Shown in pieces: positions 7,514-58,021 of a stretch of 64,000 nt of DNA. A model generated the notes under the pieces. The model was not told the origin of the DNA and did not search any database. It saw only the letters and a list, made by a program, of their open reading frames with translations. The stretch lies in the IMG/VR virus record IMGVR_UViG_3300046051_000062; one strand, given 5' to 3'. Numbering within the stretch: the stretch's first letter is position 1; each line of letters begins with the position of its first letter. Made by a program: the position numbers and the translations under genes. Origin of the DNA: a virus.

Positions 7514-8164
7514 CTACTTGACCCCCATTACGGCGTCTGTGTCGTCGTCCTGCACCGTACAGTCACAGCCGCCTGTGCGGATGAGTTCTTGTGGTGGCGT
7601 GGTTCGGGCGCACTCGTGGCAGCGGACGCGGGCGGTGACGGTGATCGTGTAGTCGTCGGGCAGGCGGATGTTGCCCGCTTCGAGGAGCCGGTGGATGCCT
7701 CTGTCGATGACGTTTTCTACGATGTCGAGTCGGTCGGTGATGTGGTCGAGCACGTCGGGGGGGTCCGTTGCGCCCGTGTAGGAGGTGTCCACGTCGAGGA
7801 ATTCGTTGAGGTGTTGTTTGACGGTCATGTGGGAGATGAACTGCTCGGTTAGCGTGTCCACGTTCACGCCGAGGAACGAGAGCTTGTCCCGGACCGTGGC
7901 GGTGGTGGTCGCGTCGGCCTCCTCGCTGACTAACGCCTCGTAGACAGTTTCCGGGGGGCCGAGTCCTCTGCCGCCGATGTCGTTCATGACCGTGGATAGG
8001 ATGTGGACGTTTACCTTTCGGGCGACTGCTCGGAGCGACTCGTCTTCTTCGACGTACCACCGGCGGATGTGGCTGTTGAGGTCGTCCAGGTCGCGTTCGC
8101 GGGCGACCTTGCCTATCTTGCAGTTACACGTCGGTCGGTTCTCCTGGCGTTTCGTTAATGACAT
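7514..8164 (-). CDS. rdfA: Rod-determining factor RdfA family protein
   Basis: N-terminal CNCKIGKVA, middle FISHMTVKQHL, C-terminal CHEC...GGCDC; directly upstream of the Sph gene, the known haloarchaeal pairing. Confidence 0.8.
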   Translation of the reverse strand: MSLTKRQENRPTCNCKIGKVARERDLDDLNSHIRRWYVEEDESLRAVARKVNVHILSTVMNDIGGRGLGPPETVYEALVSEEADATTTATVRDKLSFLGVNVDTLTEQFISHMTVKQHLNEFLDVDTSYTGATDPPDVLDHITDRLDIVENVIDRGIHRLLEAGNIRLPDDYTITVTARVRCHECARTTPPQELIRTGGCDCTVQDDDTDAVMGVK

Positions 8165-8372
8165 GCGCACATGGTGTTTGGGGACGCATCCACCTTAGTT
8201 ATACAGTCGGTAACAGCAGGTGCCGTTACGTACACCAGCAAGTAAGGTCTTCTTACTTTGATCCTACCGTATTGCTGTCCCTCAGTTTCCACTTCCAGCC
8301 CACACTTGAGCGTGATACTTCCCACTGGAGCCGTCGCTCACCGCCAGGGCGAACGACCCCCCCCCGAGCCGG

Positions 8373-11300
8373 CTACCCAGGCGGTGGTCCCCCCTTCTTG
8401 AACCACTCAAACGTGGACTGGTGGGTCCAGCACCGCTCCTCCTCGCGCGAGGTGTTATAAGCACAATTCGGCAACGCATCAACCGCAACGGTGAACGTAT
8501 TAGATACCCCATACGCGGGATGCAATGGTTCGTCGTCACCAGGGCTGAGGTCCACGTCTCCGCCGGGGGTAAAGGCGTCGCTCGGGGAGTAGAGGTCTGC
8601 GCCGTAGGGGCCAGCACCCGGCGTCCGTTCGAGTATGCCCCGCTCCTCTGCCTTCTTCAACGTCCGCCACGCGGCCTGCTTCGAGCAGCCGCAGGCGTCG
8701 GCAACCTCCTTAGCGGTCGCGCCCGCGCCGCTGTCGCGGACGTACTCCAGGCGTTCGCGCTGGTCGTCGTTAGTCGTCCACGTCACGCCGGGGGCCTGGG
8801 CGTCGATGAAGCCAGTCGGCGCGGCCTCCGTGACGACGAACACCGTTGCATGGTCTTCGGGGTCCTCTGCGTTCCTCGCCCACCGCCCTACACTCTGCGC
8901 GACGTGGTGTTCGCGTACTCCCTGGAGGACCGCATCCGCCATGTCGGCGTCCGGCCCCTCGAAAGTACGGCCATGCTCGCGGACCTCGCCGTCCCCGTAG
9001 CACGTCTCGCACATCTCCTCGCCGTCCTCGTCCACATATCCTGCCCCCTCGCAGATGGGGCACACGTCAACAACGGGTTCGGCATCGAGGTCCAGCCGCG
9101 CCAGCAGGTCCATCACCACGTTATCGCCTGGATCTATGGACCCGACCACCAGTCCGATGTTCTCGCCCTCGAAGTCGTTGCGGCTTTCCTCGTTACCGAA
9201 GTGCATCATCTCGGGGTCCTCGCAGCCGGCGTCCTCCATCGCGTTCCGAATCGTCGGGCGGGCGGCCATGCTGGTGATGGCCGTCTTGAAGTCCTCGCCG
9301 TACTGCTCTCGCAGGTGTTCGATGATGGCCTCGAACTTCTCTCCTTGGCCTTCGTCCAGCCATTGTCCGCTTGTCACGGGCTGCACTCCGTGCCCGACCT
9401 GTACCGTGAACAACCCCCGTTCGTATCGCCGGTAGAGGGTTCGCTCCTCGGTGTCGAGGGTGTAGTCGGTGGACATATCCGGGTGGATGTTCGCCTGCCA
9501 GGTCGGGTCCTCCGGTTGTGGGTGGGCGTCCAGGCCGACAACGGAGGAGGCCAGCGAGAAGTCCGGCATCGACTGAACGTCCACGATTTCCCACTGGTCG
9601 TTCAGTACCACGTCCACGAACACCCGGTTCCACCCGGACTCGTCGTGGGCGCTGTCATCGAACCGTGGTGGGTGGTACGGAATCCGGGCTGCCTTCCGTC
9701 CGCCGGCTCGTTCGTCGGCCTTCCAGATTGCCCGGGTGAACGCTGGGGCGAGTGCGTGGGCGTCGCGGTTCCCGCGGTACCACGATAGCGACGGCTTCGC
9801 GGCCCGGGTCTGAATCTCCCCGTCGCCGTCGCACCGGGGACAGGTGTCGCTGCTGGCCGCCCCGCCGTGTTGGTCGTAGTCCGTAATCTGCTGGTACTCC
9901 GACCCGCCCCGCGTTTCCTTGCCGTCGCCTCCACAGCGTGGGCAGTCGGTCGTCTCGGGGTACGGCGACAGCGCCGCGTCCATCTGCTCCTCGAAGCATT
10001 TCTTGTATTCGCCGAGCATGGTCCCGCCGACCACCCGGTTGCCCGCGACCTCCGGCTCACAGTTGTGTTGGGCGGCGAACACCAGGTCTGAGTAGTTGTC
10101 AACCGGGGCGTCACACCACTCCAGGTAGGCGTTCACCGACCTGCGGACCCGCTCTGCGTCGATGTCGATGCCGAACGCTGGTTTCTCGTCCAAAAAGATG
10201 TGGGTGTGCATCCGCAGTGACGGGACGTGGGTGAACTGGTGGGTGCAGTGAATCACGTCGTGTGTCGGCTCCCCTGCGTCGTTCCGGGGAATGCCCTCGA
10301 ACTGGCCTTTCGCCGGGCACTCGGACTCTCCCTCCTCGCAGGGCATGGTCCCGGCGACCTCTGCTTTCGCCCACTTGTGGACGACCGAGAACGGGATGCC
10401 CTGCTTGTCACAGCGGTGGTCTATCCACTCGGAGATGGGCACGCCGTCGATGGTCAGCGACCGCGAGTTCGCGCTACTTCCCGGGTCGAAGTCGCCGGCT
10501 GCGACGGGGCACAACTCCTTGCGCCCTTTGAGCGTGTAGGCGTCCACCCCTTCGTCGTCGCTCATTTGGCGTGCCTGGTCCCTGGCTTCGTGAGTGCGGT
10601 GTGCGTGGATAACCGGCTTGCCGTCAGTGGGCGAGTCTGCCCGGTCCCATGGCTCGGTGGCGACGGTGTGGGTCTTGCCCGCGCCGGTCGGTGACGCTTT
10701 CACGACCGTCTCGCCCTCCGCCACGGAATGCATGATGGTGTCGCAGAGACGGTCGCGTACCTCGTCCACATCCGGCCACTCGATGCCGCGCTGCTCTGCG
10801 TACCGGACCCGCTCCTCGTGGGAGAGCCGGTCGAGGCGTTCCAGCGGGAGGGTGGCAACTGGCTCGGCGTCCCCGTCACCGTCGTCGTTTTCCTCCGGCT
10901 CCATCTGCTCGCCGCTGGCTGCCTTGTCGATGGTGTGGGCCAGGTAGTCATCCCGGTCGGTTACCTTTTGCCTGGTCCTGTAATCCCGTATGATGCGGGC
11001 GATGTCCCGCTCCGAGTACCTCCAGAAGTGGAGTTTGGATGCGGCGGCGAAGTCGGCCTCGCTGGCCGAGGGATACGAGTAGCCGCCAGGCACGAGCGAC
11101 GAAAGGAGGGCGTCGAGTTTGTCGTCCCTGTTTCGGATGGAGTCCAGCGACATCCCGAGGTCGTTCTGGTACCGGCCACCGCCGCCTGCTTCACTTGAAC
11201 TGGTGGAGGGGTCCGGGAGGTCGTCATAGTCCTCCATATCCTTCTTGACTGAGGGTTGGAACTCCTCGGGTATCTCGTCTCCCGCCAGGGTCGCCCACTC

Positions 11301-12005
11301 GCTGTCATCGGTGATGTGGTAAACGCCTCCCGACGGGTGAATCGACCCGGGCGTGATGACATACCAGTTCTCGGCCTTCACCTCGCCTGTGCCGCCGTAT
11401 TCCCCTTTCGCAAACGCCCGTTCGACGTTCCCGTCGTTGTGGTAGTAGAGGTGTTCCCCGTCGCCGGACCCGGACATACCTTTGCCCGTGGATGGGAACT
11501 CCCGGTAGGGGAACTCGTCGGGTTCGTCCACGTCTACCACGGCGAATCCCTCGGTGCCGTGGTCGTCTTTTCCCGCGTAGATGCAGAACCCCGGATAGTC
11601 CTCCTCGAAGATGAGCCGCACGGCTTCGTCAGGGGTGACAAGGAACGACCGTCCCTTCGGCGAGTCGAGACTGGCCTCCCCCGAGATGGCCGGCTCCTTC
11701 GAATCCTCCTTAAGCGGCATGAGCATCGGCCGGCTGCCGAACTCCCGCTTGAACGCCTTGAGGAACTCGATAAGGTGCTGTGCCCGCTCTTGCGGGGTCA
11801 CGTCATCGTAGTCGATGGGGTTGTTGTGGTCTTCGTCTGGGTTCAGGTATCCGTCCTCTGCACCGATGTCCTCATCGGGCTCGTCGCTCTCCGGGGTGCA
11901 ATCGGGGCAGATGAAGGCGTTGCCGAACCGTTCGAGGCTCTCCGTGGAACCACATTTAAAGCACGATGCGCCAGCGTCGTTGTCGTCGGGTGTTTCGTCG
12001 GACAT
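8373..12005 (-). CDS. Replication protein: bifunctional primase-polymerase fused to an SF2-like helicase and C-terminal wHTH
   Basis: Prim-pol motifs (AVVDVD, GEHLYY, GEVKAENWYVITPGSIHPSGGVY); helical SEADF domain; Walker A SPTGAGKT; Walker B IFLDEKP; four CxxCxGxG motifs; C-terminal TAKEVADACGCSKQAAWRTL HTH. Confidence 0.85.
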   Translation of the reverse strand: MSDETPDDNDAGASCFKCGSTESLERFGNAFICPDCTPESDEPDEDIGAEDGYLNPDEDHNNPIDYDDVTPQERAQHLIEFLKAFKREFGSRPMLMPLKEDSKEPAISGEASLDSPKGRSFLVTPDEAVRLIFEEDYPGFCIYAGKDDHGTEGFAVVDVDEPDEFPYREFPSTGKGMSGSGDGEHLYYHNDGNVERAFAKGEYGGTGEVKAENWYVITPGSIHPSGGVYHITDDSEWATLAGDEIPEEFQPSVKKDMEDYDDLPDPSTSSSEAGGGGRYQNDLGMSLDSIRNRDDKLDALLSSLVPGGYSYPSASEADFAAASKLHFWRYSERDIARIIRDYRTRQKVTDRDDYLAHTIDKAASGEQMEPEENDDGDGDAEPVATLPLERLDRLSHEERVRYAEQRGIEWPDVDEVRDRLCDTIMHSVAEGETVVKASPTGAGKTHTVATEPWDRADSPTDGKPVIHAHRTHEARDQARQMSDDEGVDAYTLKGRKELCPVAAGDFDPGSSANSRSLTIDGVPISEWIDHRCDKQGIPFSVVHKWAKAEVAGTMPCEEGESECPAKGQFEGIPRNDAGEPTHDVIHCTHQFTHVPSLRMHTHIFLDEKPAFGIDIDAERVRRSVNAYLEWCDAPVDNYSDLVFAAQHNCEPEVAGNRVVGGTMLGEYKKCFEEQMDAALSPYPETTDCPRCGGDGKETRGGSEYQQITDYDQHGGAASSDTCPRCDGDGEIQTRAAKPSLSWYRGNRDAHALAPAFTRAIWKADERAGGRKAARIPYHPPRFDDSAHDESGWNRVFVDVVLNDQWEIVDVQSMPDFSLASSVVGLDAHPQPEDPTWQANIHPDMSTDYTLDTEERTLYRRYERGLFTVQVGHGVQPVTSGQWLDEGQGEKFEAIIEHLREQYGEDFKTAITSMAARPTIRNAMEDAGCEDPEMMHFGNEESRNDFEGENIGLVVGSIDPGDNVVMDLLARLDLDAEPVVDVCPICEGAGYVDEDGEEMCETCYGDGEVREHGRTFEGPDADMADAVLQGVREHHVAQSVGRWARNAEDPEDHATVFVVTEAAPTGFIDAQAPGVTWTTNDDQRERLEYVRDSGAGATAKEVADACGCSKQAAWRTLKKAEERGILERTPGAGPYGADLYSPSDAFTPGGDVDLSPGDDEPLHPAYGVSNTFTVAVDALPNCAYNTSREEERCWTHQSTFEWFKKGGPPPG

Positions 12006-12183
12006 GGGTGTCCCTAAAGGTTTAAGTAGACCGCGACACAAGGAGAGTATGTGTGCGTCTTCCTTCTGGCGCGGTCCGCTTTCGAGGAGATACTTCTTCC
12101 CCTTCCGTGTTAAAGCTTGGGTCCCTCTCGTGAGCGCCGGTACCTTGTAGTCAGTCCGGTGTTAATACTACTACGTAGCCACG

Positions 12184-12663
12184 ATGATGACCGCCCGCGA
12201 CCTACTCGACGGCGACGCTCTCCTCCCTGGGGATGTCGTCGTGGACAAGACGACGCACCGCCCCATGCAAGTGACCGGCTACGAACAGCGCAACGCCGAA
12301 CAAGTACCCGAGGTGTGGGAGAGCAACGTCAACCAGCACGGCCTGTCGCTCGACCCCGAGGCAAGCGTCATCGAACTTATCGACCTCCCGACGGGCAACC
12401 ACTACTACGTCCCCGAGGAAATCGAGCGGTTCCCGACCGACCGCCTCATGCGCATCATCACCGAACCCGCGACCGATGAACGCCGCGTCCAAGAGAAGGT
12501 CGTCCGGTCCGTGATGGCCCACCTGCTATCCGACCTCCGCACCCACGACGACGGGATAGTAGCCGCCTCCGCCCTCCTCGACGTGTGCCAGACCCATTGG
12601 GGCGACGAATACGTCTCGGAAGTAGCCGAGTTCGCCGAACTCGTCGCCGACATCGGACACTAA
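12184..12663 (+). CDS. Hypothetical protein
   Basis: Acidic 159-aa ORF divergent from the replication gene. Confidence 0.65.
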   Translation: MMTARDLLDGDALLPGDVVVDKTTHRPMQVTGYEQRNAEQVPEVWESNVNQHGLSLDPEASVIELIDLPTGNHYYVPEEIERFPTDRLMRIITEPATDERRVQEKVVRSVMAHLLSDLRTHDDGIVAASALLDVCQTHWGDEYVSEVAEFAELVADIGH

Positions 12664-12961
12664 CCAGTCCTCCTCCCGTGCGGTAGACGGCTGGCGTGGG
12701 AACTGGCGTTCTCGACGCCCACCGTGTCGATCACCCCCGGTGGCCAGGGGACCAGAGCGGGGTCCGAACAACGTAGAACCACCTTCGCTCCAGAACCACC
12801 ACCGCCCGTGCCCTTAGCGCGCTTTACTAATACAACGGACACAAGCCGCGCGTATAGACATGGTAAACCCCGGCTGAACCAGCCAGCCTATTCGACCCCA
12901 CACGGGGGATATTAGACCTTTTGGGACAATTATATCAGACAGGGGGTCAAAGGGTGGATAC

Positions 12962-14650
12962 ATGCCGGACGTTGACCCGGTGACATACGAAGCAATCGAC
13001 CACGTAATCGAGAACCGCGACCCCCAAGCGGAGTGGGCGCCCGAGGAGATGCGGAAAGCCCTGAAAGAACACGCCAAGGGAACGAGTCAATCCCAGGCCG
13101 TCGGGGACCGTGACTTCTCCCAGGCTCTCCTCTCGAAACGGTGGGCGGACGTGGAGGAGGTGGCCGACGAACTGCGACAGCAGTACGAGGCCGACACGGC
13201 ACTGTTCAAAGACCCCATCCAGCAGGCAGCCGACCAGTTCCGCGAGTTCTTCGAGGAACTGGACGAGGAGTACGGGTTCGGGATCAATGACCTCGCCGTC
13301 CGCATGATGGTGGACGAGATAGAGGAGGCGGGACAGTTGCCCGCCCCGATGTACGTCAAGCAGTTCCTCGACAGCGCGAAATCCGGGGTGGGCAACGCCC
13401 AGACCCTCAACTACATCACGCGCCGGTACTCGACCTGGCTGGAGAACTACCAGCAGGACTCCATGAGTGACCCGGGGATGGACCCGGGCCAGGGGTTCAG
13501 CGGGCCGAGCATCCAGCAGACCCAGCCGCCCCAACAGGGCATGGCTGGCGGCCCGCAGGTCGGCACGGAAGCGGACATGTTTCCCAACCAGCAACAGGAA
13601 CAGTCACAGCCGCCCCGCCGACACCCCCCGGAGCCACAACAGCAACACGACCCCCGCATCGACCAACTCCAAGAGCAGGTCGAGCAGCTAACGGAGGTCG
13701 TCGCACAGCAAGCCCAGGGCGACGACGGGGAGACGGAGTACATCCGGGTCGAGCAGGACGATGGGACGGTCATCGAACTGCCGGTGGACGACCCGCGTGC
13801 CAAGCAGATGTTCGAAGACGACGAGGAGGACATGTTCGAACAGATGCGAAAACTTTGCGAACTCGGCCTCATCGTCACCCCCACCGACCTGGAGGACGAC
13901 TCCGGGGACGCCATGGGCGAGGCGGTCGCGGAGGCCATCGAGTCCCTCGGTCAGCGCCAGATGCAGATGCAACAGCAGCAGGCCGAGCGGTTCGAGAGCG
14001 TCCTCGAACAGATACGCGAATCCGAGGAGGACGACGAACCCGACCTGTCTGGCGAGGACGTGCGCGACATCATCAACGACGAACTCAAGGAGGACGAGGT
14101 GGATCGGCTCGAACGGGAACTCCAGCGGACACGCGAGAGCATGGAGGAGGAACTCAAGAGCGTCAAGCGGGCGGGCGGGGTCGAGCAAAACCCCGAGTTC
14201 GCCAAGCGCGACCGCGAAATCGAGTTCCAAGAGGAGTCCCTGCGGACCCTCAACGAGAACCTCCAGGTCCTCCCGGAGAAAGTGTCGGCCGCCCTCCGTG
14301 ACGGCATCGTCCCCGCGATGAAGGAGGTCCAGCACATGCAGCCCGGCGAAGGCCACCCCGCCTGGAGTCCGCCAGCCCAACAACAGCAGGGCGAGCCAGC
14401 CTACGTCCCCGAGGAGGCCCAACAGCCCGACCCCCAGCCCCAGCCACAACCCCGCCAGCAACAACCCACCACCGAGGAGTCCTACCCGGACCCCGAAGTG
14501 CCACCACAGGGGCGTGAGCCCGAGCGGCAAACGGCACACGAACAAACGGACCAAGCGGAACCAGAGCAATCGAACGAGCAGAAGGCAGCGGAGGTCCGAG
14601 AGCGGCTCGGACTGACTGACAGCGACACCCCCCAGGAGGTCGAAGCATGA
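12962..14650 (+). CDS. Large acidic coiled-coil protein with Q/P-rich linkers
   Basis: 562 aa, heptad-like EQLQEQVEQL and DRLERELQRTRE segments; stop overlaps the next start. Confidence 0.8.
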   Translation: MPDVDPVTYEAIDHVIENRDPQAEWAPEEMRKALKEHAKGTSQSQAVGDRDFSQALLSKRWADVEEVADELRQQYEADTALFKDPIQQAADQFREFFEELDEEYGFGINDLAVRMMVDEIEEAGQLPAPMYVKQFLDSAKSGVGNAQTLNYITRRYSTWLENYQQDSMSDPGMDPGQGFSGPSIQQTQPPQQGMAGGPQVGTEADMFPNQQQEQSQPPRRHPPEPQQQHDPRIDQLQEQVEQLTEVVAQQAQGDDGETEYIRVEQDDGTVIELPVDDPRAKQMFEDDEEDMFEQMRKLCELGLIVTPTDLEDDSGDAMGEAVAEAIESLGQRQMQMQQQQAERFESVLEQIRESEEDDEPDLSGEDVRDIINDELKEDEVDRLERELQRTRESMEEELKSVKRAGGVEQNPEFAKRDREIEFQEESLRTLNENLQVLPEKVSAALRDGIVPAMKEVQHMQPGEGHPAWSPPAQQQQGEPAYVPEEAQQPDPQPQPQPRQQQPTTEESYPDPEVPPQGREPERQTAHEQTDQAEPEQSNEQKAAEVRERLGLTDSDTPQEVEA

Positions 14651-15468
14651 AACTGAAAGATGTCCCCACAAAAGTGTTGATAGGCTCAGGAAAAGGCGGC
14701 GTCGGGAAGACGACGGTCGCGTCCGACATCGCCAAGACAGCAGCCGAACTGGTCGATGCGGTCGGCCTCATCGACGCCGACATCTCGACGCCGAACACAC
14801 CCCAGGTGGTCGGCGGCGAAGGAATGGACGTATCCAGCCAACGCCTCGCCACCGGAGACGCCCTGGTGCCCCCGGACGTAGACGGCATCCAGGTCATCTC
14901 CCAGGGCATGGTCCTCCCGGACGACGTGCCCGTCCTGCGCGGGGCGCAGTGGCGTGCAGAGACGGTCGCCGACTACATCAGCAACGTCGAGTGGGCCGAC
15001 GACACCGAACTGGTCGTCATCGACAGCCCGCCCGGCAGCGGCGGCGAACTCCAGACGGTCGCGTCGATGGTCGCTCTCGATCACGCCTACGTCGTCACGA
15101 CCCCCCATCCCTCGTCGGTCCGTGACGCCACCAAGACCCACGAGTTCTTCAACCAGGCAAACGTCCCCCATTCGGTCCTGCTGAACATGGCGTACATCCC
15201 CCACACCGACATCGTCCAGCACGTCACCAGTACAACCGACTTCGAGGACATCCAGGGTATCGGCGAGGCCAAGGCCGAATCCATCGCGGAACTGATGGAC
15301 GAGCAGGCCCCCGACTTCGACCTGTTCGGCCACGAGGCCGGCTACGAGGCCCCCATCGACGCCCCGCAGGCCGGTGTCATCCCCTACACCGACCAGTTCT
15401 CCCTGCGCAGCATGGTGCTGGAGAATGTGCTGGGTGACCTCCTCGACGCACAGGAGGTCGAAGCATGA
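14647..15468 (+). CDS. Mrp/NBP35-like (SIMIBI) P-loop ATPase
   Basis: GSGKGGVGKTT, DADISTPN, VIDSPPG and VTTP motifs. Confidence 0.85.
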   Translation: MKLKDVPTKVLIGSGKGGVGKTTVASDIAKTAAELVDAVGLIDADISTPNTPQVVGGEGMDVSSQRLATGDALVPPDVDGIQVISQGMVLPDDVPVLRGAQWRAETVADYISNVEWADDTELVVIDSPPGSGGELQTVASMVALDHAYVVTTPHPSSVRDATKTHEFFNQANVPHSVLLNMAYIPHTDIVQHVTSTTDFEDIQGIGEAKAESIAELMDEQAPDFDLFGHEAGYEAPIDAPQAGVIPYTDQFSLRSMVLENVLGDLLDAQEVEA

Positions 15469-24885: not shown

Positions 24886-25060
24886 CCGCATCTACCGGGG
24901 CGAAGTGCTGGAAGCGGCCCTCGACCCGGAGGACTATGCGTCGCTGGCGGACCTGGAGGACGCCCTGCGTGACGATTTTGATGACCTGGAGCCCGGCGAG
25001 GAGTTGTACGTCTCGCTGTCGGACGGACACTTGGTCGTCAAAAAACTGCGTGAGTTGTAG
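24863..25060 (+). CDS. Small hypothetical protein
   Basis: Acidic 65-aa ORF overlapping the previous stop. Confidence 0.55.
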   Translation: MERTSDSDRIYRGEVLEAALDPEDYASLADLEDALRDDFDDLEPGEELYVSLSDGHLVVKKLREL

Positions 25061-27278: not shown

Positions 27279-27678
27279 CGTCTCCGTGGGGGGTGGGGTG
27301 CGTGCCGGTGTCGCTGCGCCCGGGGACGGTCGTGAAGTGGTTGAGGACACACGTCGGGGGGTTGGCCTCGCCCTGGCGGCGGGCGTACAGCGACTGGTAT
27401 TTCTCCACCAGCGCGCTGGTGCCCTTGTCATCGTGGTCGCCGAGGCGGCGCAGTATCTCCTCGTCGGGATTGTAGCCCTGTTCGAGCATCATACGCCGGG
27501 CGTTGATGCAGATGTCCGCCAGTTCCTCGATGCACTCCTCGCCGTCGTACTCGTCGTCCTCCATGTCCCGGAGGTCACAGCCGATGACGAACGCGACGTA
27601 GGGAAAGCCGCCCTGCTCGAAGTCATCGTGACCGCCCCACACATCCTCGATGGTGCGGTCGAGAATCGACCGAAGCAT
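27265..27678 (-). CDS. MazG-like all-alpha NTP pyrophosphohydrolase
   Basis: IEELADICINA motif. Confidence 0.45.
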   Translation of the reverse strand: MLRSILDRTIEDVWGGHDDFEQGGFPYVAFVIGCDLRDMEDDEYDGEECIEELADICINARRMMLEQGYNPDEEILRRLGDHDDKGTSALVEKYQSLYARRQGEANPPTCVLNHFTTVPGRSDTGTHPTPHGDDGSN

Positions 27679-27683
27679 GGCTG

Positions 27684-27872
27684 TTAGTCCCCCTCGGTCA
27701 CGAGAACGGCGTCCACGTAGTCGCCCTCCACGATGTCGTACTTCTCGCGCTTCTCGGCGGGGATGGTGAGCCGGCCATCGGAGCCGACCTGCCAGTCGGT
27801 GATGACGACCTGTTCGGAGTCCGGTTCGGCGAGCGCGTCAGTAGTCTCCTCTGTATCGTTGTCGAGTGTCAT
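27684..27872 (-). CDS. AbrB/MazE/SpoVT-family DNA-binding protein
   Basis: QVGSDGRLTIPAEKREKYDIVEGDYV. Confidence 0.85.
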   Translation of the reverse strand: MTLDNDTEETTDALAEPDSEQVVITDWQVGSDGRLTIPAEKREKYDIVEGDYVDAVLVTEGD

Positions 27873-27971
27873 GTGTGTTACTGTCGGGTGGTGGCCCCCA
27901 AAAGGTGTGGGTGTCGTTGGCCACCGGAGTGCCCCGGCAGGGCGGCGACCCCTGCGTGTACGCCTCGTGAG

Positions 27972-28142
27972 TCAGTCGGGGCCGGTGGCCGGGTCGAGGT
28001 CCAGGCGGACCCGATGGCCGCACTCCATGCAGGCGTAGGTGGCCCAGGGGCCATCTGCATTGCCTGTGTCCATCTCGAAGTTCCGCAGGTCTTTGCAGGC
28101 GATACACGTCAGCGACAGCCGTCTCTGTGCGGTTACTGTCAT
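27972..28142 (-). CDS. Small zinc-ribbon protein
   Basis: CIAC...CMECG. Confidence 0.55.
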   Translation of the reverse strand: MTVTAQRRLSLTCIACKDLRNFEMDTGNADGPWATYACMECGHRVRLDLDPATGPD

Positions 28143-28314
28143 GATGATGGTGAAGCCGTCGCGCGGCGGTGAACCGTTGCGACGGTGGTCCGGATAAGGC
28201 CCGAAGGTGGGCGCGGCGAGAGCCTCAACCGGGGAAGGGGGGTCCCCCACAGTGTGGGGGGTGGGGTTTGGGAGGTGGAGACGGTGAAAACACGTCTCCA
28301 CTCTCTCCTATTAC

Positions 28315-30522: not shown

Positions 30523-30805
30523 CGCCCTCCGCCCCGTCGTCCGCCAGACCGAGGGCGTCCGAGAGCACCCGCGTCGCGCGGTCCAGTTCCGTGTAGAACT
30601 CGGCGAACGTAGCGTCGTCCACGTCGCCCTCGACCACGGACCCATCGGGTAGTTCTACTTCCACGTCGCGGCGCTCGAACCCTTCGCGGGGGCGTTTCTC
30701 GCGGACGACCTCGACCGTCACGTCGCCGCGCTGGTCCGGGCCGTCCCCGAGTTGCACGGAGGACTTGAGACGAGTGAACTCGCCGTCCGGGCCGTTACTG
30801 ACCAT
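30515..30805 (-). CDS. Hypothetical protein
   Basis: Acidic ORF overlapping both neighbours. Confidence 0.6.
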   Translation of the reverse strand: MVSNGPDGEFTRLKSSVQLGDGPDQRGDVTVEVVREKRPREGFERRDVEVELPDGSVVEGDVDDATFAEFYTELDRATRVLSDALGLADDGAEGDG

Positions 30806-30977
30806 CGTCGCCTTCCGTGGGGACGAGTATGGCGTCGTCGTCGCGCCATTCCCGTATCTTCGCGGCGACCCTCCCGGCGTCGCTCGCGGAGTCGAAGTTG
30901 CCGTTGGCCACGGCGTCCGTGCGGAAGTGGTCCACTGCCGTCTCGATGATGGCCTTCTCGCGTTCGGTGAACTCCAT
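30795..30977 (-). CDS. Small hypothetical protein
   Basis: Acidic ORF overlapping both neighbours. Confidence 0.6.
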   Translation of the reverse strand: MEFTEREKAIIETAVDHFRTDAVANGNFDSASDAGRVAAKIREWRDDDAILVPTEGDDGQ

Positions 30978-31210
30978 CAGGAATCGGCCTCCACGTCGTC
31001 GGCTGCCTGCATGATTTCGTCGGCCACCCGGTTGAAGTCGGCGGCGGGGTTCCCTGGCATCTTCGCGGCTGTGCGGAAGCCCTTGGCCATGTTGCGGGCG
31101 GCAGCGGGTGCGAGTCGCTGTTCGTTGTTTGGTGTTTCGACCACGACCGCGTCCTGGTCGTAGTCGCGTGCTATCACTATCTCGCCTGGGTCTGCGTCGG
31201 TATCAGCCAT
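30977..31210 (-). CDS. Small hypothetical protein
   Basis: Start taken at MADTDADPG. Confidence 0.6.
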   Translation of the reverse strand: MADTDADPGEIVIARDYDQDAVVVETPNNEQRLAPAAARNMAKGFRTAAKMPGNPAADFNRVADEIMQAADDVEADS

Positions 31211-31696
31211 GTGTTCCAAGTGGATTGACGGTGGTGCGCGGACTGCCCGCGCGGCACCGTCGAGGGACCCGCCGGGAGTCGAACCCGGTCGGGTATGGTG
31301 GTGGTGTGCAATCGGCGTCGCCAGCGTTGCATACTCCCGCTCGCTGGGCGGGCGGGCTACGTGGCTCCCACCGTCAGCGTGCCGGGTGGTCCGGCACTCG
31401 GTGGGGTGGCTGGGGTTGGATGGGGGCGTGCTTTGGGTTGTGGCCCCGAGCAGGGGTGCCTTCCCCGGCCCTTCCCGGCGGAACACGCTCGCCGTGAAGG
31501 ACATCGTGGACGGGTGGTGGCGTGGTCGGGTGGGCGCTTCGGCCCGCAGTCGCCCCACACCCCACCGCTTTGTGGTCCGTTGCGTCGCGTTTCGGTGTAT
31601 TCCACCGCATTGCACCTAAACCTTCCGGTGCCGCTGCCCGGGTGCTGGGGACGAACCATCTGGCCCCTCTCGGGACAGAATGTGGGGGTTGTGCCC

Positions 31697-40670: not shown

Positions 40671-40880
40671 TCAGAACGGGGGCCGCACGTCGTGTTCGTC
40701 CGGGTCGTAGTCGGGGTGTCGCGCCGGGTCCGCCCGGCGGGCGATGATCTCGGCGCGGTCCGTTATCTCCTTGAGGTGGTACTCGGCCCCGTTGGCCTCC
40801 ACGATGTCTGCCAGCGAGTTGACGTGAGCTTTGATGCTGCTTGCCTTCTCGTGGACCTCCTTCTCGTTGCGTCTGTCCAT
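40671..40880 (-). CDS. Array ORF, hypothetical
   Basis: Repeat at 40885. Confidence 0.7.
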   Translation of the reverse strand: MDRRNEKEVHEKASSIKAHVNSLADIVEANGAEYHLKEITDRAEIIARRADPARHPDYDPDEHDVRPPF

Positions 40881-40926
40881 GGTGGTCACGCCCCTCTCGG
40901 GGCTGGATGGTGGTGGGTGGTCGCGG

Positions 40927-42201: not shown

Positions 42202-42243
42202 TGGTGTCACGCCCCTCTCGGGGCAAGATGGTGGTGGGTGGTG

Positions 42244-42423
42244 CTATCCGCGCGGGCGGTCGTGTTCGTTCCGGAAGTCGAGTTCGGCCTGTGCTTCATC
42301 CTTGAGTGTCTGCGCGAAGCCGACGAGTTCTTGGAGGTCCTCGGGCTTCGCGGCGTCCTCCACGACGAACGCCCGGATGTCCTTCTCGTCGGCGTCCGCC
42401 GGACAGTCGATGTGGACCGTCAT
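42244..42423 (-). CDS. Array ORF, small helical protein
   Basis: Coupled by ATGA overlap to the upstream ORF; has no repeat of its own. Confidence 0.6.
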   Translation of the reverse strand: MTVHIDCPADADEKDIRAFVVEDAAKPEDLQELVGFAQTLKDEAQAELDFRNEHDRPRG

Positions 42424-48831: not shown

Positions 48832-48870
48832 CGGGGTCACGTCCCTCTCGGGACTGGACGGGGGGAGTAC

Positions 48871-52879: not shown

Positions 52880-53272
52880 TTAGACGGTAATGGTCATGCC
52901 GTCCGTGAAGTCCCGGCGGCCCTCCGGCGTCTCGACGTACCACTCAAAGTCCCGCTGGATCACCGTGTAGCCCGGCGGGGTGTGGCGGTTGATGCGCTGT
53001 TTCGTCGTCCTGGTTCGGTGGCCGCACGAATCCAGGCGGTACGTGTCGCCGTCCCGGACCACCACCGGGCTGTGGTGGTAGTAGTAGACGGTCACGCCGT
53101 CCACTTCAACGATCACGTCCCGGTAGGCGCCCCGGTCGGTGTCGTTGGAGCACCCACAGCGGGGGTGGCCTCGCGGGCCACTCCCGGGCTGGTGGTAGGC
53201 GTCCTGGTTGGTCACGGTACCGCGGTCGCACGCGTCCCAGTAGTCCGGGACGGGTAGGCTCTTGGCCGTCAT
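52880..53272 (-). CDS. Array ORF, phage-type hypothetical
   Basis: TRTTKQRINR...QRDFEWYV...FTDGM pattern; repeat at 53279. Confidence 0.7.
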   Translation of the reverse strand: MTAKSLPVPDYWDACDRGTVTNQDAYHQPGSGPRGHPRCGCSNDTDRGAYRDVIVEVDGVTVYYYHHSPVVVRDGDTYRLDSCGHRTRTTKQRINRHTPPGYTVIQRDFEWYVETPEGRRDFTDGMTITV

Positions 53273-53326
53273 TGTCGAGTCACACCCCTCTCGGGGCCGG
53301 TGGGGGCGGGGAGTGCCCCCGCGCCG

Positions 53327-53494
53327 TTAGCGGGTTATCATCAGCCGGTCGTCCGCACACTCGCCGCAAGCAGCGCGCGGGGCGAGTCCGGCGTAGACAG
53401 TCTCAACCGCTTCGACTTGCCGGTGCCCGCAACCCATGCACTCGAACGTGTACTCGGTCAATTCCGGCGGGCCTCGCTTTGGTGGTTGGGTCAT
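53327..53494 (-). CDS. Array micro-ORF, zinc ribbon (55 aa)
   Basis: FECMGCG...ACGEC; repeat at 53519 plus an extra GGGGGG/CCCCCC hairpin before the ATG. Confidence 0.65.
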   Translation of the reverse strand: MTQPPKRGPPELTEYTFECMGCGHRQVEAVETVYAGLAPRAACGECADDRLMITR

Positions 53495-53566
53495 TATCTC
53501 GGGGGGGTCAACCCCCCGGTCACGCCCTTCTCGGGGCTCTAACGGGGTGGAGGCGGGGACCGCCCG

Positions 53567-53872
53567 TCAGTCGCTCCCCGCGAGACGGGGGGCCATGGCG
53601 GCCAGTCCCGCGACGGCGACGTGCAGGGCGTCGGTGTCTCCATCCATCACTGTTTGCTCGTACACCCGGTCACCGTCGCCGTCGGGGTGATCGAGGAACC
53701 GTACCAGCCGAACGGTCGTACCGCTCCGGTCGGCCCGGTGTATCACCTGAATGTGGACCCGGTGGCGCTCGCACCGCCACGTCCGGGTTCCGTGTCCGTC
53801 GTTCAACGCCCACCCGTCCGGTAGTCGGTCGGCCGGGGTCGGGGCGGGGAGATTCGTGGGTACTGATGTCAT
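53567..53872 (-). CDS. Array ORF, hypothetical
   Basis: Repeat at 53879. Confidence 0.7.
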   Translation of the reverse strand: MTSVPTNLPAPTPADRLPDGWALNDGHGTRTWRCERHRVHIQVIHRADRSGTTVRLVRFLDHPDGDGDRVYEQTVMDGDTDALHVAVAGLAAMAPRLAGSD

Positions 53873-53923
53873 GGTCGGGTCACGCCCCTCTCGGGGCAGG
53901 TGGTTCAGCCCCCCACCGGACGC

Positions 53924-54061
53924 TTACACGTCGGCGGGGTCGTCGGGCGAGTAGTCGGTCCCGGCGTGGGACAGTTGGTCGTCCACGGTCCACCGCGGGT
54001 CCGTGTCGTCGCGGTCGTCCAGCGGTTCGCCTGGGGTCTTGAGTAGGTCGTCCCCTTGCAT
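53924..54061 (-). CDS. Array micro-ORF (45 aa, very acidic)
   Basis: MQGDDLLKTPGEPLDDRDDTDPRW...; repeat at 54067. Confidence 0.6.
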   Translation of the reverse strand: MQGDDLLKTPGEPLDDRDDTDPRWTVDDQLSHAGTDYSPDDPADV

Positions 54062-54100
54062 TGTGAGTCACGCCCCTCTCGGGGCAAAAACGGAGGGTGT

Positions 54101-54421
54101 CTACCCGGGGCGCTGCGCCACGTCTCCGGGTTTGCGCGGGTCCGCGAGTTCTTCGGCCGGGCAGTCAGCGACCACCAGGCCGATTTTCTTCGGCTCGGAG
54201 TGGACCAGCGAGTTGCTCACCGGGTACCAGCCGAGGCGCCGAATCAGGGCGAACACTCCCATGTCCGCCCGCCCGTCCCGAAGGTCGAAGGACAGGATGG
54301 TGGCGTCGCGGTCACGGTTCGGTTCCTGTTCGTCCGGCCCCACGACGACGAAGGACGAATCCACGCCGTCGAGTTCGAGGAGCCGGTCTTGCAGTCGCTC
54401 ATGGTCGGTTATCTCGTCCAT
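54101..54421 (-). CDS. First clear array ORF, hypothetical
   Basis: Repeat at 54429. Confidence 0.7.
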   Translation of the reverse strand: MDEITDHERLQDRLLELDGVDSSFVVVGPDEQEPNRDRDATILSFDLRDGRADMGVFALIRRLGWYPVSNSLVHSEPKKIGLVVADCPAEELADPRKPGDVAQRPG

Positions 54422-54614
54422 GTTGGGACACGCCCCTACTCGGGGCGAAGGGTCGTAGGCGTAAGTGGTGTGCCTACTGCGGTTGGTGGCCGGGGCTTCT
54501 CAGCCCTCCGGCCGGGGGATACCAGCCCCCAGCGTTTCCAGCCCTTGCTCCACCGTCGTTCGGTCGGTAGTATCCACGGTGCTGTATCTCTCTCGCACGG
54601 CCCCTTGCGGGGCC

Positions 54615-55700
54615 TGTCGTCGGTCTGATGATGGCGTATGCCTTCTACGGGCGGTGCCCGCCCACGCTCTCGCGCGGGTGGCGACCGGAGGGGGCTATGC
54701 CCCTCGGTCGAGTCCCGTAGCCGTGAGATTCCTCGCTCCCGTGTGGGGCGCGCGGCGAGAAGCCGACCTGTCGGGTGGGTCCGGTTGCTGGGTTAGGCGG
54801 CCTATTGGGGCCGCGGCCTACAAGCCACGTAGGCCGGTGGGTCCGGGGTATATCCGCCCCCACGCACGCCCGGGTCGGTCCCGGGGGCGATTGGTCAGAC
54901 TGGCGACCTTCTCTCTCCCCTAACGGTAGTATCTCTCAGTCGTTGACGAGTCCGAAAAAAGTCGTCCGAACCTGGATACCGCCCGGGAGTCGTTCGCTCG
55001 AAGGATTGCGAACCGGCGGATTGTGAGCCAGCCGGCAAGGCTCCCGTGCACCGCGCACGGGGCCGAACGGGGTTTCATCAAATCAGGGGTACGGTTTCCC
55101 GTTCGCCCTGCCCGTCCGACGCACGCCCGGGATTCAGGTACATTGAGCCGACACAAGGCCGGTGCTGGAACCGTCACCCGACGTGCGCGGTGTGTCTCCG
55201 ATTCGCGCCCCCGGCCATCCTACGCTTGCGCTTCTTCCGACCCACGGAAGGGTTCGACCCATAGGGTAGGCGTCTCGACAGGGCGCGGATTCACACCGCC
55301 GTGACACCCGGACCCACCGAACGGGTCCGGGCCGTATGCTGTTTCCGACGTGTCGGTTAGACTCCCCGTGGCAATCGGGGGTAGATGCGTGGGGTCGAGA
55401 AGGGTCCGGGCGCCAGGGGGCGGAAGGCCCCCCACCGGGTCCGGGGCGATCACGCCGCCCGGTTCGGGAGCGGGAAGTGGCCACCGTGTGGCGGGTTCCC
55501 CGCCCCCGGGGGGCGGTTTGAACGGTTGCATCCTCCGACGCCTCCGTCCCGCGGATTGGGACGGTCCACGCCGGGCAGCCGTGCCGGGGTACCCCCGCGC
55601 CGGGAATCCGCCCACCTTCGGGCAGATATGCCATACTACGGCATGGTCCGTAATAAGTGTTTCGATTCCGATTTTCAGCCAGTATCGGCGGTGAAATTGC
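54615..55700 (-). ncRNA. Candidate large structured non-coding RNA or leader
   Basis: No acidic ORF in any frame; many perfect hairpins and a 13-bp long-range inverted repeat; strand inferred from the array orientation. Confidence 0.4.
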
Positions 55701-55718
55701 TGTAAGACCCGGCTTTGG

Positions 55719-55740
55719 GAGTTAAAATTATAGTTTTAGC
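55719..55740. promoter_or_regulatory. AT-rich imperfect palindrome (TATA-like and/or protein-binding site)
   Basis: GTTAAAATTATAGTTTTAGC; its left part is repeated (1 mismatch) at 56483-56495. Confidence 0.5.
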
Positions 55741-56024
55741 ACCGGTCTACCCACCGTCACACCAACCCCCGCCTGCGGGGGGTTCCCACCCCCACGCCGT
55801 CCCGCGAATCTACCGCGCGCGCGGGGCACAACCTCCCGCGCACGTCCCACGACATCAACGCCGAGCCATAGAGGGCCTTTAAGTGCGGAAGGACCACCCA
55901 CCACCATCTCGCGCCATGCGGCGCGCTGAACCACGGTGTATAGACCCACACCGTTCGGCGTTTACGGTGACTATCGGACCCTACACCTAAGCCCCGGCGT
56001 CCCGTAGTGCCCAGGTACGAACCC

Positions 56025-56462
56025 ATGGTCCACTCGTTCATTGGCATCCCCACGAAAGCCTTCACCCGCATCGCCATCCGAGAAGATGGGACCGACCGCC
56101 CGTCTCCCGGGAAACTGGAGCGTATCGACAGCATCATGGCCTCCTTCGGCGGGGGCCACGCCTGGCGGTTCGCCCTCGCGGCTGACGAGCAACACACCGA
56201 CAGTTACGAGTACGGATACCTCATCTACGGCGGACGGTCCATCGACCGACACAAGCTCGAATCGCTGGAGGAGGAACTCCAAGAAGCCGGAGTGGACTCC
56301 CCCTGGGTGCGGGCGGAGTCCCTGTGGGTGGACGGCGAGCAACTCGACCGAATGGAGTTCGTCGGGCGCGACCCGGAGGAGGCACTCGCCGCCCTCTCAG
56401 GACTCCGGGACGCCGTGGAAGACAGGATGGATGACGACGACGACCCGCCGACCCTCGGCTGA
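56025..56462 (+). CDS. Hypothetical protein
   Basis: Acidic ORF starting MVHSFIGIP, upstream of the recombinase. Confidence 0.7.
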   Translation: MVHSFIGIPTKAFTRIAIREDGTDRPSPGKLERIDSIMASFGGGHAWRFALAADEQHTDSYEYGYLIYGGRSIDRHKLESLEEELQEAGVDSPWVRAESLWVDGEQLDRMEFVGRDPEEALAALSGLRDAVEDRMDDDDDPPTLG

Positions 56463-56501
56463 CCGTCACCTTCTTGATTTGAGAGTTAAAACTATGCGCC
56501 G

Positions 56502-57422
56502 ATGAGCGTTCAAAACCAGCACGTCGAGGCGTTCCGCAACCGGGTGGTCGGCCGCCGCATCAAGGAGAACACGTACAACGTGTACGAGCCGTGGGTGAAG
56601 CGGTACGAGATGTGGCGCTCCGGGGGCGAGCCGACCCTGGGTGGACTCATCGACTTCGACTCCATGCTGGCCGACGCCGAACGGTCGGAGTACCCCTGGG
56701 AGTACACGACCGGGCGCAAGCAGCCCGACGGGTACGCCTACCGGACCAGGGTCGTCGCCCTTTCGGCCGCGAAGCTGTGGTCCCGAGTCCACTACGACGC
56801 CCGCATCGAGGAGGAGGTCCAACACATCGCCGAAGGCGAACCCGCCCCCTTCGACCCACCATACCTCTCCCGGGACGACGTGGCCCGGGTGCTGGCATCC
56901 GCCGAGGAGAACTGTAACAACCCCGACTGCGAGGCCATGCTCCATCTGACCTACGACGCCCTGCTGCGCTGTGCAGAGGTCGTCACCGTCGAGCGAGAGG
57001 ACATCGACCTCGACAGGGGCACCCTCGACGTGCGTCCCGTGAAGGGCGGCCTCAACATGACGGTGGGCCTCTCCCGGGAGACTGTCGAAGTCCTCCGGTC
57101 GCACCTGCGCGACGACGCGGGACGCGGCAAGGTGTTCACGAACACCTACGGGAACGGATGGAAGCCGACCTCCTGGTCCACGCACTTTCGAGACTACCAC
57201 CACGAGGTCGGTGCCCACTCGTTCGGTCGCCACTCGCCGATTATGCATCGACTGTCGGCTCCGGCGGAGTTCGAGACGATGGACCAGGACGGCGACCCCT
57301 TCGGTCAGACCTACAGGAGGTCCCGTCACCATCACCCCTCGATGACCACCAGGTATGCGCGGCTGTTGGACACCGAGGTCCCCGACTGGGCCGGCGACGA
57401 CACCTCGGGGACAGTCGCCTGA
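56502..57422 (+). CDS. Tyrosine recombinase/integrase
   Basis: Catalytic set: LLR(CAE), VKGG, HSFGR(H), RH..., TTRY. Confidence 0.9.
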   Translation: MSVQNQHVEAFRNRVVGRRIKENTYNVYEPWVKRYEMWRSGGEPTLGGLIDFDSMLADAERSEYPWEYTTGRKQPDGYAYRTRVVALSAAKLWSRVHYDARIEEEVQHIAEGEPAPFDPPYLSRDDVARVLASAEENCNNPDCEAMLHLTYDALLRCAEVVTVEREDIDLDRGTLDVRPVKGGLNMTVGLSRETVEVLRSHLRDDAGRGKVFTNTYGNGWKPTSWSTHFRDYHHEVGAHSFGRHSPIMHRLSAPAEFETMDQDGDPFGQTYRRSRHHHPSMTTRYARLLDTEVPDWAGDDTSGTVA

Positions 57423-57511
57423 AACCGGCCCGCTGGAAGGTGGTTTTCCCCCCGTTGACCCTTGGGGTAGTCTCTATGTCAGCGGTTCAATCCCCCGGGG
57501 GTGGCGGGTGG

Positions 57512-58021
57512 TTAGTAGAGGCCTTTGGGCAGCCATTCGCTGATTGTCATTACCCGGTTTTCATCGGAGTAGACCTTGTAGGTCCGCTCCAGATAGAGCG
57601 CGGACGCCCCGTCGATGAACGTGGGCAGGTCGGTTGCGTCGTGCCAGGTGGCGTCCATTCCGACTATCTCTCGTCGCGTCTCCGCGTACTCCTCGCGCAG
57701 CAGGTCGCCGATGCCGATGTCGCCGGTGACCAGTCGGTCCTCCATCTCGTTGTCGAGTGGGTAGGTGTTCACCTTCGAGGCGGCCCACGCCAGCACGGAG
57801 TCGTCGCGGTCCCGGCGCAGCGCCACCTCTCGCTTGAGGGTCGAGCCGTGGACCTCCCGGTTGAGGATGTCCACTCGGACCTCCCCACGAGTCAGTGCCT
57901 CCAGCATGTGCGTGACGGTGCCGTCGGTCGCCAACAGTAGTCGCTCGACCGGCGAGAGGCTCACCCCGTCGTGGGCGGCCACGGTGGCGAGCATCGAACG
58001 GATGTCGTCGCCTGCTCCCAT
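57512..58021 (-). CDS. Chorismate pyruvate-lyase-like (UbiC/DUF98 family)
   Basis: ERLLLATDGTVTHMLEAL, REVAL, DIGIGDLL, TRREI, RTYKV...ISEWLP. Confidence 0.8.
   Translation of the reverse strand: MGAGDDIRSMLATVAAHDGVSLSPVERLLLATDGTVTHMLEALTRGEVRVDILNREVHGSTLKREVALRRDRDDSVLAWAASKVNTYPLDNEMEDRLVTGDIGIGDLLREEYAETRREIVGMDATWHDATDLPTFIDGASALYLERTYKVYSDENRVMTISEWLPKGLY

Follow-up and report, generated by a model that had tools for sequence, protein, structure and literature searches.

A non-coding, palindrome-rich stretch at the head of a small-gene array in a haloarchaeal plasmid-like element as a possible divergent control region

A 64,000-nt stretch of DNA (hereafter the window; IMG/VR record IMGVR_UViG_3300046051_000062), part of a 90,266-nt contig from a halite metagenome, represents a haloarchaeal plasmid-like element of about 90 kb with an overall GC content of 67%. 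It contains a gene-free gap of 1.6 kb (54422-56024) that lies between two ATG codons, that of the first gene in a minus-strand array of small ORFan genes and that of a plus-strand open reading frame (ORF 56025), which is followed by a tyrosine recombinase gene. The array on the left and the ORF 56025/recombinase pair on the right make this gap the point of divergence of the two blocks. Most of it, 54447-55720, is hairpin-rich DNA that an initial annotation had proposed to be a large structured non-coding RNA (ncRNA) or a leader transcribed ahead of the array, or alternatively a single-strand origin or recombination platform. Our analysis shows that this stretch is non-coding, that it is enriched in short hairpins and repeated motifs and has a strand asymmetry, and that it is associated with a repeated AT-rich element and with one of only three T6 tracts in the window. 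We tentatively favour its interpretation as an untranslated control region between two divergent transcription units, made up of divergent promoters and a leader of approximately 0.5-1.25 kb. The main value of the analysis is negative, as the idea of a large structured RNA fails both the folding controls and the scant comparative evidence.

The absence of a halophile-like open reading frame noted by the initial annotation was confirmed. GC content by codon phase differs by no more than 0.18 over 54450-55720, which is a flat profile with no coding signal, and the longest aperiodic run of the entire window is 54391-55831 (1440 nt, compared with at most 570 nt elsewhere). The gap has a GC content of 0.64-0.71 except for its AT-rich right end. 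A Pfam search of seven ORFs within the gap identified no family, while a word-indexed protein search with a 166-residue ORF returned no match. An exhaustive HMMER search with a 152-residue ORF matched one 2674-residue protein in six separate stretches; this match was read as compositional rather than homologous, leaving no credible homologue. A tblastx comparison of the gap with the window and with the loci of relatives (see below) yielded scattered high-scoring segment pairs of at most 37 bits, which represent compositional noise. ARAGORN detected no tRNA or tmRNA in the gap, and a scan for sigma-70 promoters and intrinsic terminators, which is unsuited to archaea, found neither.

All eight stems reported by the initial annotation are present: 54797-54814 (6-bp stem, 6-nt loop), 54815-54835 (7 bp, or 8 bp when taken as 54814-54836), 55043-55061 (a perfect 7-bp stem with a 5-nt loop), 55234-55250 (a perfect 6-bp stem with a 5-nt loop, in a diverged duplicate of the palindrome region at 55307), 55307-55331, 55500-55516 (7 bp, 3 nt), 55544-55564 (7 bp, 7 nt) and 55628-55644, which has just 5 bp around a 7-nt loop. 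The stem at 55307-55331 is part of a 25-bp palindrome with a perfect 9-7-9 arrangement, CCCGGACCC-ACCGAAC-GGGTCCGGG. When perfect stems of at least 6 bp with loops of 3-9 nt were counted, the stretch contained 13, compared with 3.7 ± 2.0 in 300 dinucleotide shuffles, none of which reached 13; the hairpin density is therefore approximately 3.5 times that of shuffled sequence. Stems of at least 7 bp were similarly over-represented (5 observed, 1.1 in shuffles). Frames taken across the whole window contain a mean of 4.6 ± 2.8 stems, and a count of 13 was reached solely by frames overlapping the gap, which is the densest part of the window. A test for G-U strand bias in extensions of these stems detected none on either strand. 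The short and perfect stems, their abrupt boundaries and the lack of G-U bias suggest local DNA palindromes or small isolated hairpins rather than long RNA helices.

The hairpins are accompanied by repeated motifs. A 13-bp inverted repeat that had been reported between 54835-54847 and 55307-55319 is exact, but is marginal when considered alone, since 5% of shuffles reach 13 bp. The core of this repeat, the 11-mer GGTGGGTCCGG, was confirmed at 54774 and has three copies in the gap and zero elsewhere in the window. Two are direct plus-strand copies at 54774 and 54836 (together spanning 54774-54846) that flank the hairpins at 54797-54814 and 54814-54836, while the third is inverted and forms the left arm of the 55307-55331 palindrome. 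GGGTCCGG is found at six sites in the gap, all within 0.7 kb (an 18-fold enrichment), compared with 13 in the remaining 62 kb. The palindrome itself comprises two GGGTCCGGG half-sites, and more half-sites are located at 54777, 54839, 55402 and 55437. Judged on geometry, 55307-55331 could be a tyrosine-recombinase core or the site of a dimeric regulator, and the combination of this 9-7-9 palindrome with the GGGTCCGG repeats would be compatible with a role in binding either type of protein.

In folding controls, the gap behaves like the coding DNA of its own contig. The 200-nt windows of the gap have mean folding z-scores of -0.69 (plus strand) and -1.07 (minus strand), compared with -0.57 ± 0.95 for random windows from the same contig. 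The whole-length fold of 54950-55700 has a z-score of -2.2 on the minus strand, a value obtained from 20 shuffles only, while 54447-54960 gave -3.4 and -4.5 in two runs on the minus strand and -1.5 on the plus strand. Six control windows of 514 nt ranged from +1.7 to -5.5, so the values for 54447-54960 fall inside the control range. As a yardstick, the 1.5-kb ORF-free region of the halovirus HSTV-2 has mean z-scores of -1.8 to -2.0 and a core that reaches -2.6 to -5.1, and the gap therefore folds more weakly than this region. An Rfam search, which the initial annotation had recommended, returned nothing for the whole window at the gathering threshold (Rfam 15), and the stretch is not a member of any Rfam family; at E ≤ 1, the region 54300-56100 gave one match, to a Pyrobaculum H/ACA sRNA, that is at chance level (18.8 bits, where the cut-off is 64). 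The initial annotation had also named three findings that would speak against a large structured RNA, and two of these were obtained, namely no detectable conservation and folding no better than that of same-contig controls. A large structured RNA is therefore not supported.

The proposal of a leader ahead of the array is plausible on sequence grounds. The array is a minus-strand block of small ORFan genes that extends from approximately 32 kb to 54421, with GCCCCGAGAGGGGCGTGAC upstream of each gene. A regular expression identified 36 units, in 32 of which this element sits 5-8 nt upstream of the start codon, and a covariance model of the array head detected 42 copies at E < 0.01 between 32.1 and 54.45 kb. 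The first gene (54101-54421, minus strand) encodes an acidic ORFan protein of 106 residues, has a third-position GC content of 0.83 and starts 7 nt after the head motif. This head-most copy, GCCCCGAGTAGGGGCGTG (54429-54446, minus strand), scores 35 bits with the covariance model and has no further significant copy to its right: the best match in the gap reaches 11 bits (E = 0.69), and no array head motif is present there. The adjoining 54447-54954 (minus strand) could be the 5' leader of the array or else a former unit that has decayed, and carries six perfect hairpins plus one that resembles the array motif, GGCCCC-GCAA-GGGGCC followed by GTG (54596-54614). Between 54447 and 54926 there are no octamers with at least six A/T, leaving the first array gene without a TATA-like box within approximately 500 nt; the closest sequences that could serve as one are located 509 nt (a T6 tract) and 1.3 kb (an AT-rich palindrome) upstream. 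Given its hairpin and Shine-Dalgarno-like head, the first array gene needs a 5' untranslated region, and without an AT-rich box within this distance it must be read from a distant start. In addition, 54400-54800 shows an array-like AT skew of -0.31 to -0.43, compared with values close to zero over 54800-55700, which indicates that the left 0.4-0.5 kb behaves like the sense strand of the array transcription unit, or like former coding DNA.

Within the array, the 5-bp stem of the head element shows RNA-type variation, with one compensatory change from C-G to U-A (the unit at 48838) and G-U wobble variants in which GGGGT is found at three units and GCCCT at one. Around eight of the 36 units feature a T-rich box that immediately precedes the hairpin, 25-30 nt upstream of the ATG, and the hairpin in these units would sit between a TATA-like box and a leaderless start. 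Codon periodicity is weak in two other stretches, 30700-31650 at the array tail and 27600-28300; the array may thus be flanked by non-coding DNA on both sides, and no similarity of these stretches to the array head region was seen.

The AT-rich promoter-like site that had been placed at the right end of the stretch is real, as 55719-55741 ranks among the top two spots of the window in AT content. It forms a near-palindrome, GAGTTAAAATTATAGTTTTAGCAC (55719-55742), that is a candidate bidirectional promoter or operator. The 13-mer GAGTTAAAAYTAT has three matches in the window (55719 on the plus strand, 55730 on the minus strand and 56483 on the plus strand), where 0.14 would be expected. The first two, one per strand, make up the near-palindrome, and the third (56483-56495) lies just upstream of the recombinase gene. 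AT-rich boxes also precede the starts of other first genes by 20-31 nt (box at 12162 for the start at 12184, 12926 for 12962, 61489 for 61520 and 1415 for 1384), which makes such boxes good promoter candidates in an element with 67% GC. The candidate promoter boxes of the gap are 55719-55742, 55649-55667 and the T6 tract at 54955-54960 (minus strand), which could be a TATA-like box and/or an oligo-U terminator. Just three homopolymer runs of at least 6 nt exist in the 64 kb, every one of them a T6 on the minus strand. The tract at 1415-1410 is in the TATA position, 31 nt upstream of the presumably leaderless ATG (1384) of a typical acidic gene, whereas that at 25045-25040 is in a terminator position, 61 nt past the last gene of the long minus-strand block. 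The 12-mer AGTTTTTTGACG is found at both sites (1404-1415 and 25034-25045, minus strand), so the same T6 element seemingly occurs in the position of a promoter as well as in that of a terminator. To the right of the AT-rich element, 55740-56024 is presumably the leader of ORF 56025. It carries a C/A-rich linker, ACCACCCACCACCATC, followed by the hairpin CGCGCC-ATGC-GGCGCG (55890-55925, plus strand), a plus-strand look-alike of the array inter-unit junction that matches 42220-42251 and 40868-40922 on the opposite strand.

Searches for relatives of the gap were largely unproductive. Its DNA had no match in phages and plasmids by blastn, no exact copy of the 25-nt palindrome was found in IMG/VR, and no homology to the HSTV-2 region was detected by nhmmer, although a loose blastn search picked up one CG-rich patch of 42-51 nt. 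Scans of IMG/VR and GTDB genomes for the array motif gave single chance matches in bacteria only, and the array segment had only chance matches in PLSDB. The PrimPol-type replication protein of the element had only distant matches on haloarchaeal plasmids when searched against phages, IMG/VR and PLSDB. For the recombinase, no relatives were found in IMG/VR or PLSDB; 24 related proteins were identified in total, the closest of which (54-61% identity) are known only from Logan contigs. Sixteen loci from JGI/ENA that encode recombinase relatives (41-49% identity) contain neither the gap region nor the array motif. In two relatives, L007 (2177-2200) and L010 (9499-9522), the recombinase gene is preceded at a distance of approximately 0.5 kb by a shared 24-bp 9-6-9 palindrome, GGCTCCAGA-ACCCTG-TCTGGAGTC, which may serve this family of recombinases as a recombination site. 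No equivalent was found in the window.

Among the sequencing runs listed, the window sequence is present in three DNA runs, all from one halite study and one of them probably the source, and in no RNA run. The only comparative view came from a second halite sample of that study (run X2). Here, a 208-nt variant contig covers 54639-54846 with 35 substitutions and 6 indels (17% divergence, 83% identity). A variant of the recombinase segment at similar depth has 16 differences in 268 nt, and seven of the eight changes listed are at third codon positions. The non-coding piece has therefore diverged about as much as the third positions of the recombinase gene. The GGTGGGTCCGG copy at 54774 has four changes in this variant and the motif is lost, while the stems of 54688-54705 and 54797-54814 are spared among the changes listed, with one loop base changed in each. 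The chance of such sparing is around 0.01 when computed from 17% divergence over 24 stem bases, which is only a hint. X2 holds the same element at approximately 3x depth over 53000-58000 as well as the diverged strain (94% identical in the recombinase segment and 83% in the head segment), and also a more abundant contig (depth 15) that matches short islands only, namely two array motifs, 54706-54740 and a stretch from 55578. The diverged strain and the island-matching contig indicate that related elements with different head regions coexist in the community. Joints in X2 were considered as products of recombination or excision, but their sides of 20-35 nt at array-motif copies led us to read them as repeat artefacts.

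In the control region that we tentatively propose, the near-palindrome at 55719-55742 would act as a back-to-back promoter/operator that fires to the right, towards ORF 56025 and the recombinase gene, and to the left into the GC-rich spacer. This leftward path would be split at 54955-54960 by the T6 tract. Most transcripts from the right would stop here to yield a non-coding RNA of approximately 0.75 kb, and the tract may also serve as a TATA box for a transcript that starts near 54930. The first array gene would thus be preceded by an untranslated leader of approximately 0.5 kb, or 1.25 kb with read-through. The dense short palindromes and GGGTCCGG sites would be local signals rather than parts of one large fold, and could act as small hairpins of the leader RNA or be bound by a regulator or the neighbouring recombinase. 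If this is true, the stretch is where expression of a very unusual 23-kb array of ORFan genes with hairpin heads is turned on, and the place to look for the regulator and promoter logic of the element. A long intergenic leader is in itself ordinary biology, and it is the array, not its head, that is the unusual object. The coordinates 55719-55742, 54955-54960 and 55307-55331 are offered for transcript mapping or binding work.

Several points weigh against this proposal. We infer every transcription start, stop and binding event in it, the AT-rich element is palindromic and its direction is therefore not fixed, and the T6 tract could be a chance feature. A 5' leader of 0.5-1.25 kb would be unusual in haloarchaea, whose mRNAs are mostly leaderless. 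The T-rich boxes of some array units mean that the array may not depend on an upstream promoter, and the divergence of the X2 relative at around the rate of third codon positions, with loss of the 54774 copy of GGTGGGTCCGG, fits weak constraint. A bolder version would see the gap as a minus-strand leader RNA, or a separate ncRNA of approximately 0.75 kb, of a new archaeal kind, in which the hairpins and the oligo-U stop gate read-through into the 23-kb array (around 40 ORFan genes) and thereby its timing, as an archaeal counterpart of phage early-leader antitermination; we regard this as a long shot.

The near-synonymous divergence of the gap in X2 and the four changes in its 54774 motif copy could instead reflect a neutral or decaying spacer with no function beyond the right-edge promoters, consisting of former coding DNA (for example, dead array units) or filler. 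The palindromes would then have arisen by neutral processes, such as template-switch correction of quasi-palindromes. This is less than likely but has to be taken seriously: no homologue was found in the phage, plasmid and IMG/VR collections or in the fetched relatives, folding does not exceed that of contig controls, and the motif-like hairpin and GTG at 54596-54614, with array-like skew, fit a dead unit. However, no part of the window is richer in hairpins, their density far exceeds that of shuffles, and the gap retains no surviving array head motif, codon periodicity or protein-level remnant. A compact, gene-dense mobile element is also unlikely to keep 1.2 kb of useless DNA, and two hairpin stems tentatively seem to be spared among the X2 changes listed. 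We consider it improbable that the stretch is instead an autonomous ncRNA of approximately 0.75 kb with its own function, transcribed on the minus strand from around 55700 to the T6 tract at 54955, by analogy with the large phage RNAs GOLLD and ROOL or with the HSTV-2-like region. A promoter-like element and an oligo-T tract do bracket a gene-free 0.75 kb, for which the whole-length z-score (-2.2, 20 shuffles only) would be in keeping with such an RNA, and HSTV-2 and its relatives have likewise retained 1.5 kb of ORF-free DNA towards the upstream end of a minus-strand small-gene block. Set against this are the lack of an Rfam match, 200-nt z-scores at the level of contig controls and weaker than those of the HSTV-2 region, the absence of sequence homology to that region, short, perfect and abrupt stems without G-U strand bias, and no strand asymmetry over 54960-55700.

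The two inverted arms around a 7-bp spacer at 55307-55331 raise the question of whether the region is a cluster of recombination sites for the neighbouring tyrosine recombinase, for multimer resolution or integration, with this palindrome as the core and the GGGTCCGG half-sites and small palindromes as accessory elements. A 9-7-9 arrangement with a 7-bp spacer has the layout of lox, FRT, dif or attP cores, and it is in this geometry only that the palindrome resembles a core site. The six enriched GGGTCCGG sites in 0.7 kb, a recombinase gene 1.2 kb away and the 24-bp palindromes upstream of the recombinase genes in L007 and L010 all speak for this idea. Nevertheless, the palindrome has no sequence in common with those of the relatives, recombination sites span tens to a few hundred bp and not 1.2 kb, one motif copy is not kept in the variant strain, and the recombinase is minimal and Xer-like with no recognised arm-binding domain. 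We therefore regard a site cluster as rather unlikely. A replication origin or single-strand initiation region, in which the AT-rich DNA is an unwinding element and the GC-rich palindromes and repeats are initiator sites or priming hairpins, appears very improbable. It would be consistent with the AT-rich 100-bp island that adjoins palindrome- and repeat-rich DNA at the point of divergent transcription, and with the cumulative GC skew maximum of the window at 55528. However, GC skew follows gene orientation and its maximum is not the expected position of an origin, no origin recognition box (ORB)-like sequence was recognised in the gap despite the AT-rich island and repeats, and the PrimPol-helicase and ParA genes are 40 kb away with lower-GC non-coding flanks of their own. 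In the PrimPol plasmid pRN1, the origin closely follows the rep gene (PMC4234260). No Rep, HUH or Rep_trans-type gene was identified among the ORFs scanned with Pfam or PHROG, and there is no relaxase nearby. The catalytic motif of Rep-Arvir comprises residues 281-285 and an essential residue is at position 410, so that this protein, which is fused to a winged helix-turn-helix domain, exceeds 400 residues (PMC13107129), whereas ORF 56025 encodes only 145; a 90-kb replicon is also unlikely to use rolling-circle replication. The single-strand origin or recombination platform of the initial annotation thus found no support, given the missing Rep or relaxase gene, the distance of the replication genes, a recombinase that is not IntI and the absence of an array-type site from the region. 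The aperiodic stretches 8101-8671 and 11851-13051 (GC 0.57-0.60), which flank the PrimPol gene and lie upstream of the ParA operon, would be better origin candidates than the gap.

By its position, the stretch recalls phage early leaders and the promoter-bearing intergenic repeats of the halovirus HF2. Phage and plasmid early leaders (lambda pL/nutL and the HK022 put RNAs) are likewise gene-free and hairpin-bearing, with a divergent promoter region on one side and a long block of small accessory genes on the other, and may contain a terminator inside the leader, for which T6 is the candidate here. Unlike these, the archaeal stretch has no recognisable antitermination signal, N-like protein or conserved RNA module. 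The analogy is one of position only. The halovirus HF2 features 29- and 58-bp intergenic repeats that are spread through its genome and whose promoter activity was tested by reporter fusions (PMC8707807). It is comparable as a haloarchaeal mobile element with repeated AT-rich elements before transcription units, but GAGTTAAAAYTAT has three copies only, shows no similarity to HF2 and is a candidate promoter element, and most of the gap consists of GC-rich DNA with no copies elsewhere. HSTV-2, HRTV-7 and other Mincapvirus haloviruses (KC117376 65632-67145) also carry more than 1 kb of gene-free, GC-rich DNA towards the upstream end of an extended run of small minus-strand genes, with an Xer-like recombinase on the genome; in contrast, their region shows 94-97% conservation across six viruses and a fold far more stable than that of shuffles, whereas the gap has no detectable kinship with it. 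The HSTV-2 stretch (L023 16633-18146) is ORF-free in the HSTV-2 and HRTV-7 records, has one more gene upstream and is 94-97% identical in HRTV-2, HRTV-7, HRTV-11, HCTV-6 and HCTV-15. Its central 500 nt reach a z-score of -5.1, and later annotations put 3-5 small hypothetical ORFs on it.

The perfect 9-7-9 inverted repeat at 55307-55331, near a tyrosine recombinase gene, recalls the dif/XerA, loxP and FRT cores, yet it matches no known site, is 1.2 kb from the gene with an ORF between them, and is not common to relatives. An integron platform offers a further parallel, with a recombinase gene divergent from a small-gene array, the same short element before each gene and a non-coding head between them. 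The array element differs in being a 19-nt hairpin (5-bp stem) near start codons and not a 60-140-nt attC, no copy of it is present in the head, and an ORF and 1.6 kb separate the recombinase gene from the array. An attI/attC platform was rejected, as the recombinase scores 31.3 bits against an IntI (TIGR02249) cut-off of 265 and no attC-like element was found.

The recombinase (56502-57422, plus strand; PF00589, E = 6.5e-11; AT-rich element copy upstream at 56483-56495) also falls far below the XerA cut-off. Based on its sequence, it is minimal and Xer-like, has no recognised arm-binding domain and is not an integron integrase. Within 55650-58000, the only inverted repeats of the 24-bp class with 9-11-bp arms are at 56294-56321 and 57849-57873. 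ORF 56025 (56025-56462, plus strand; 145 residues) has no assigned function, belongs to no Pfam or NCBIfam family and has one homologue only (54% identity), with which it shares no conserved HUH motif, as its sole histidine candidate is not kept. Its predicted structure (predicted local distance difference test score of 63) matches generic ferredoxin-like folds only, with low confidence, among them the hypothetical protein ORF119 of SIRV1 (PDB 2x3g). ORF 56025 was considered as a Rep-like or DNA-binding protein, but this predicted match appears too generic for any conclusion. The element looks like an uncultured salt-crystal archaeal plasmid or virus whose gene content is plasmid-like: the window encodes the PrimPol-type replication protein (8373-12041; 1222 residues) and ParA (14647-15468), together with RdfA, an SMC-like protein and several isoprenoid and quinone genes.

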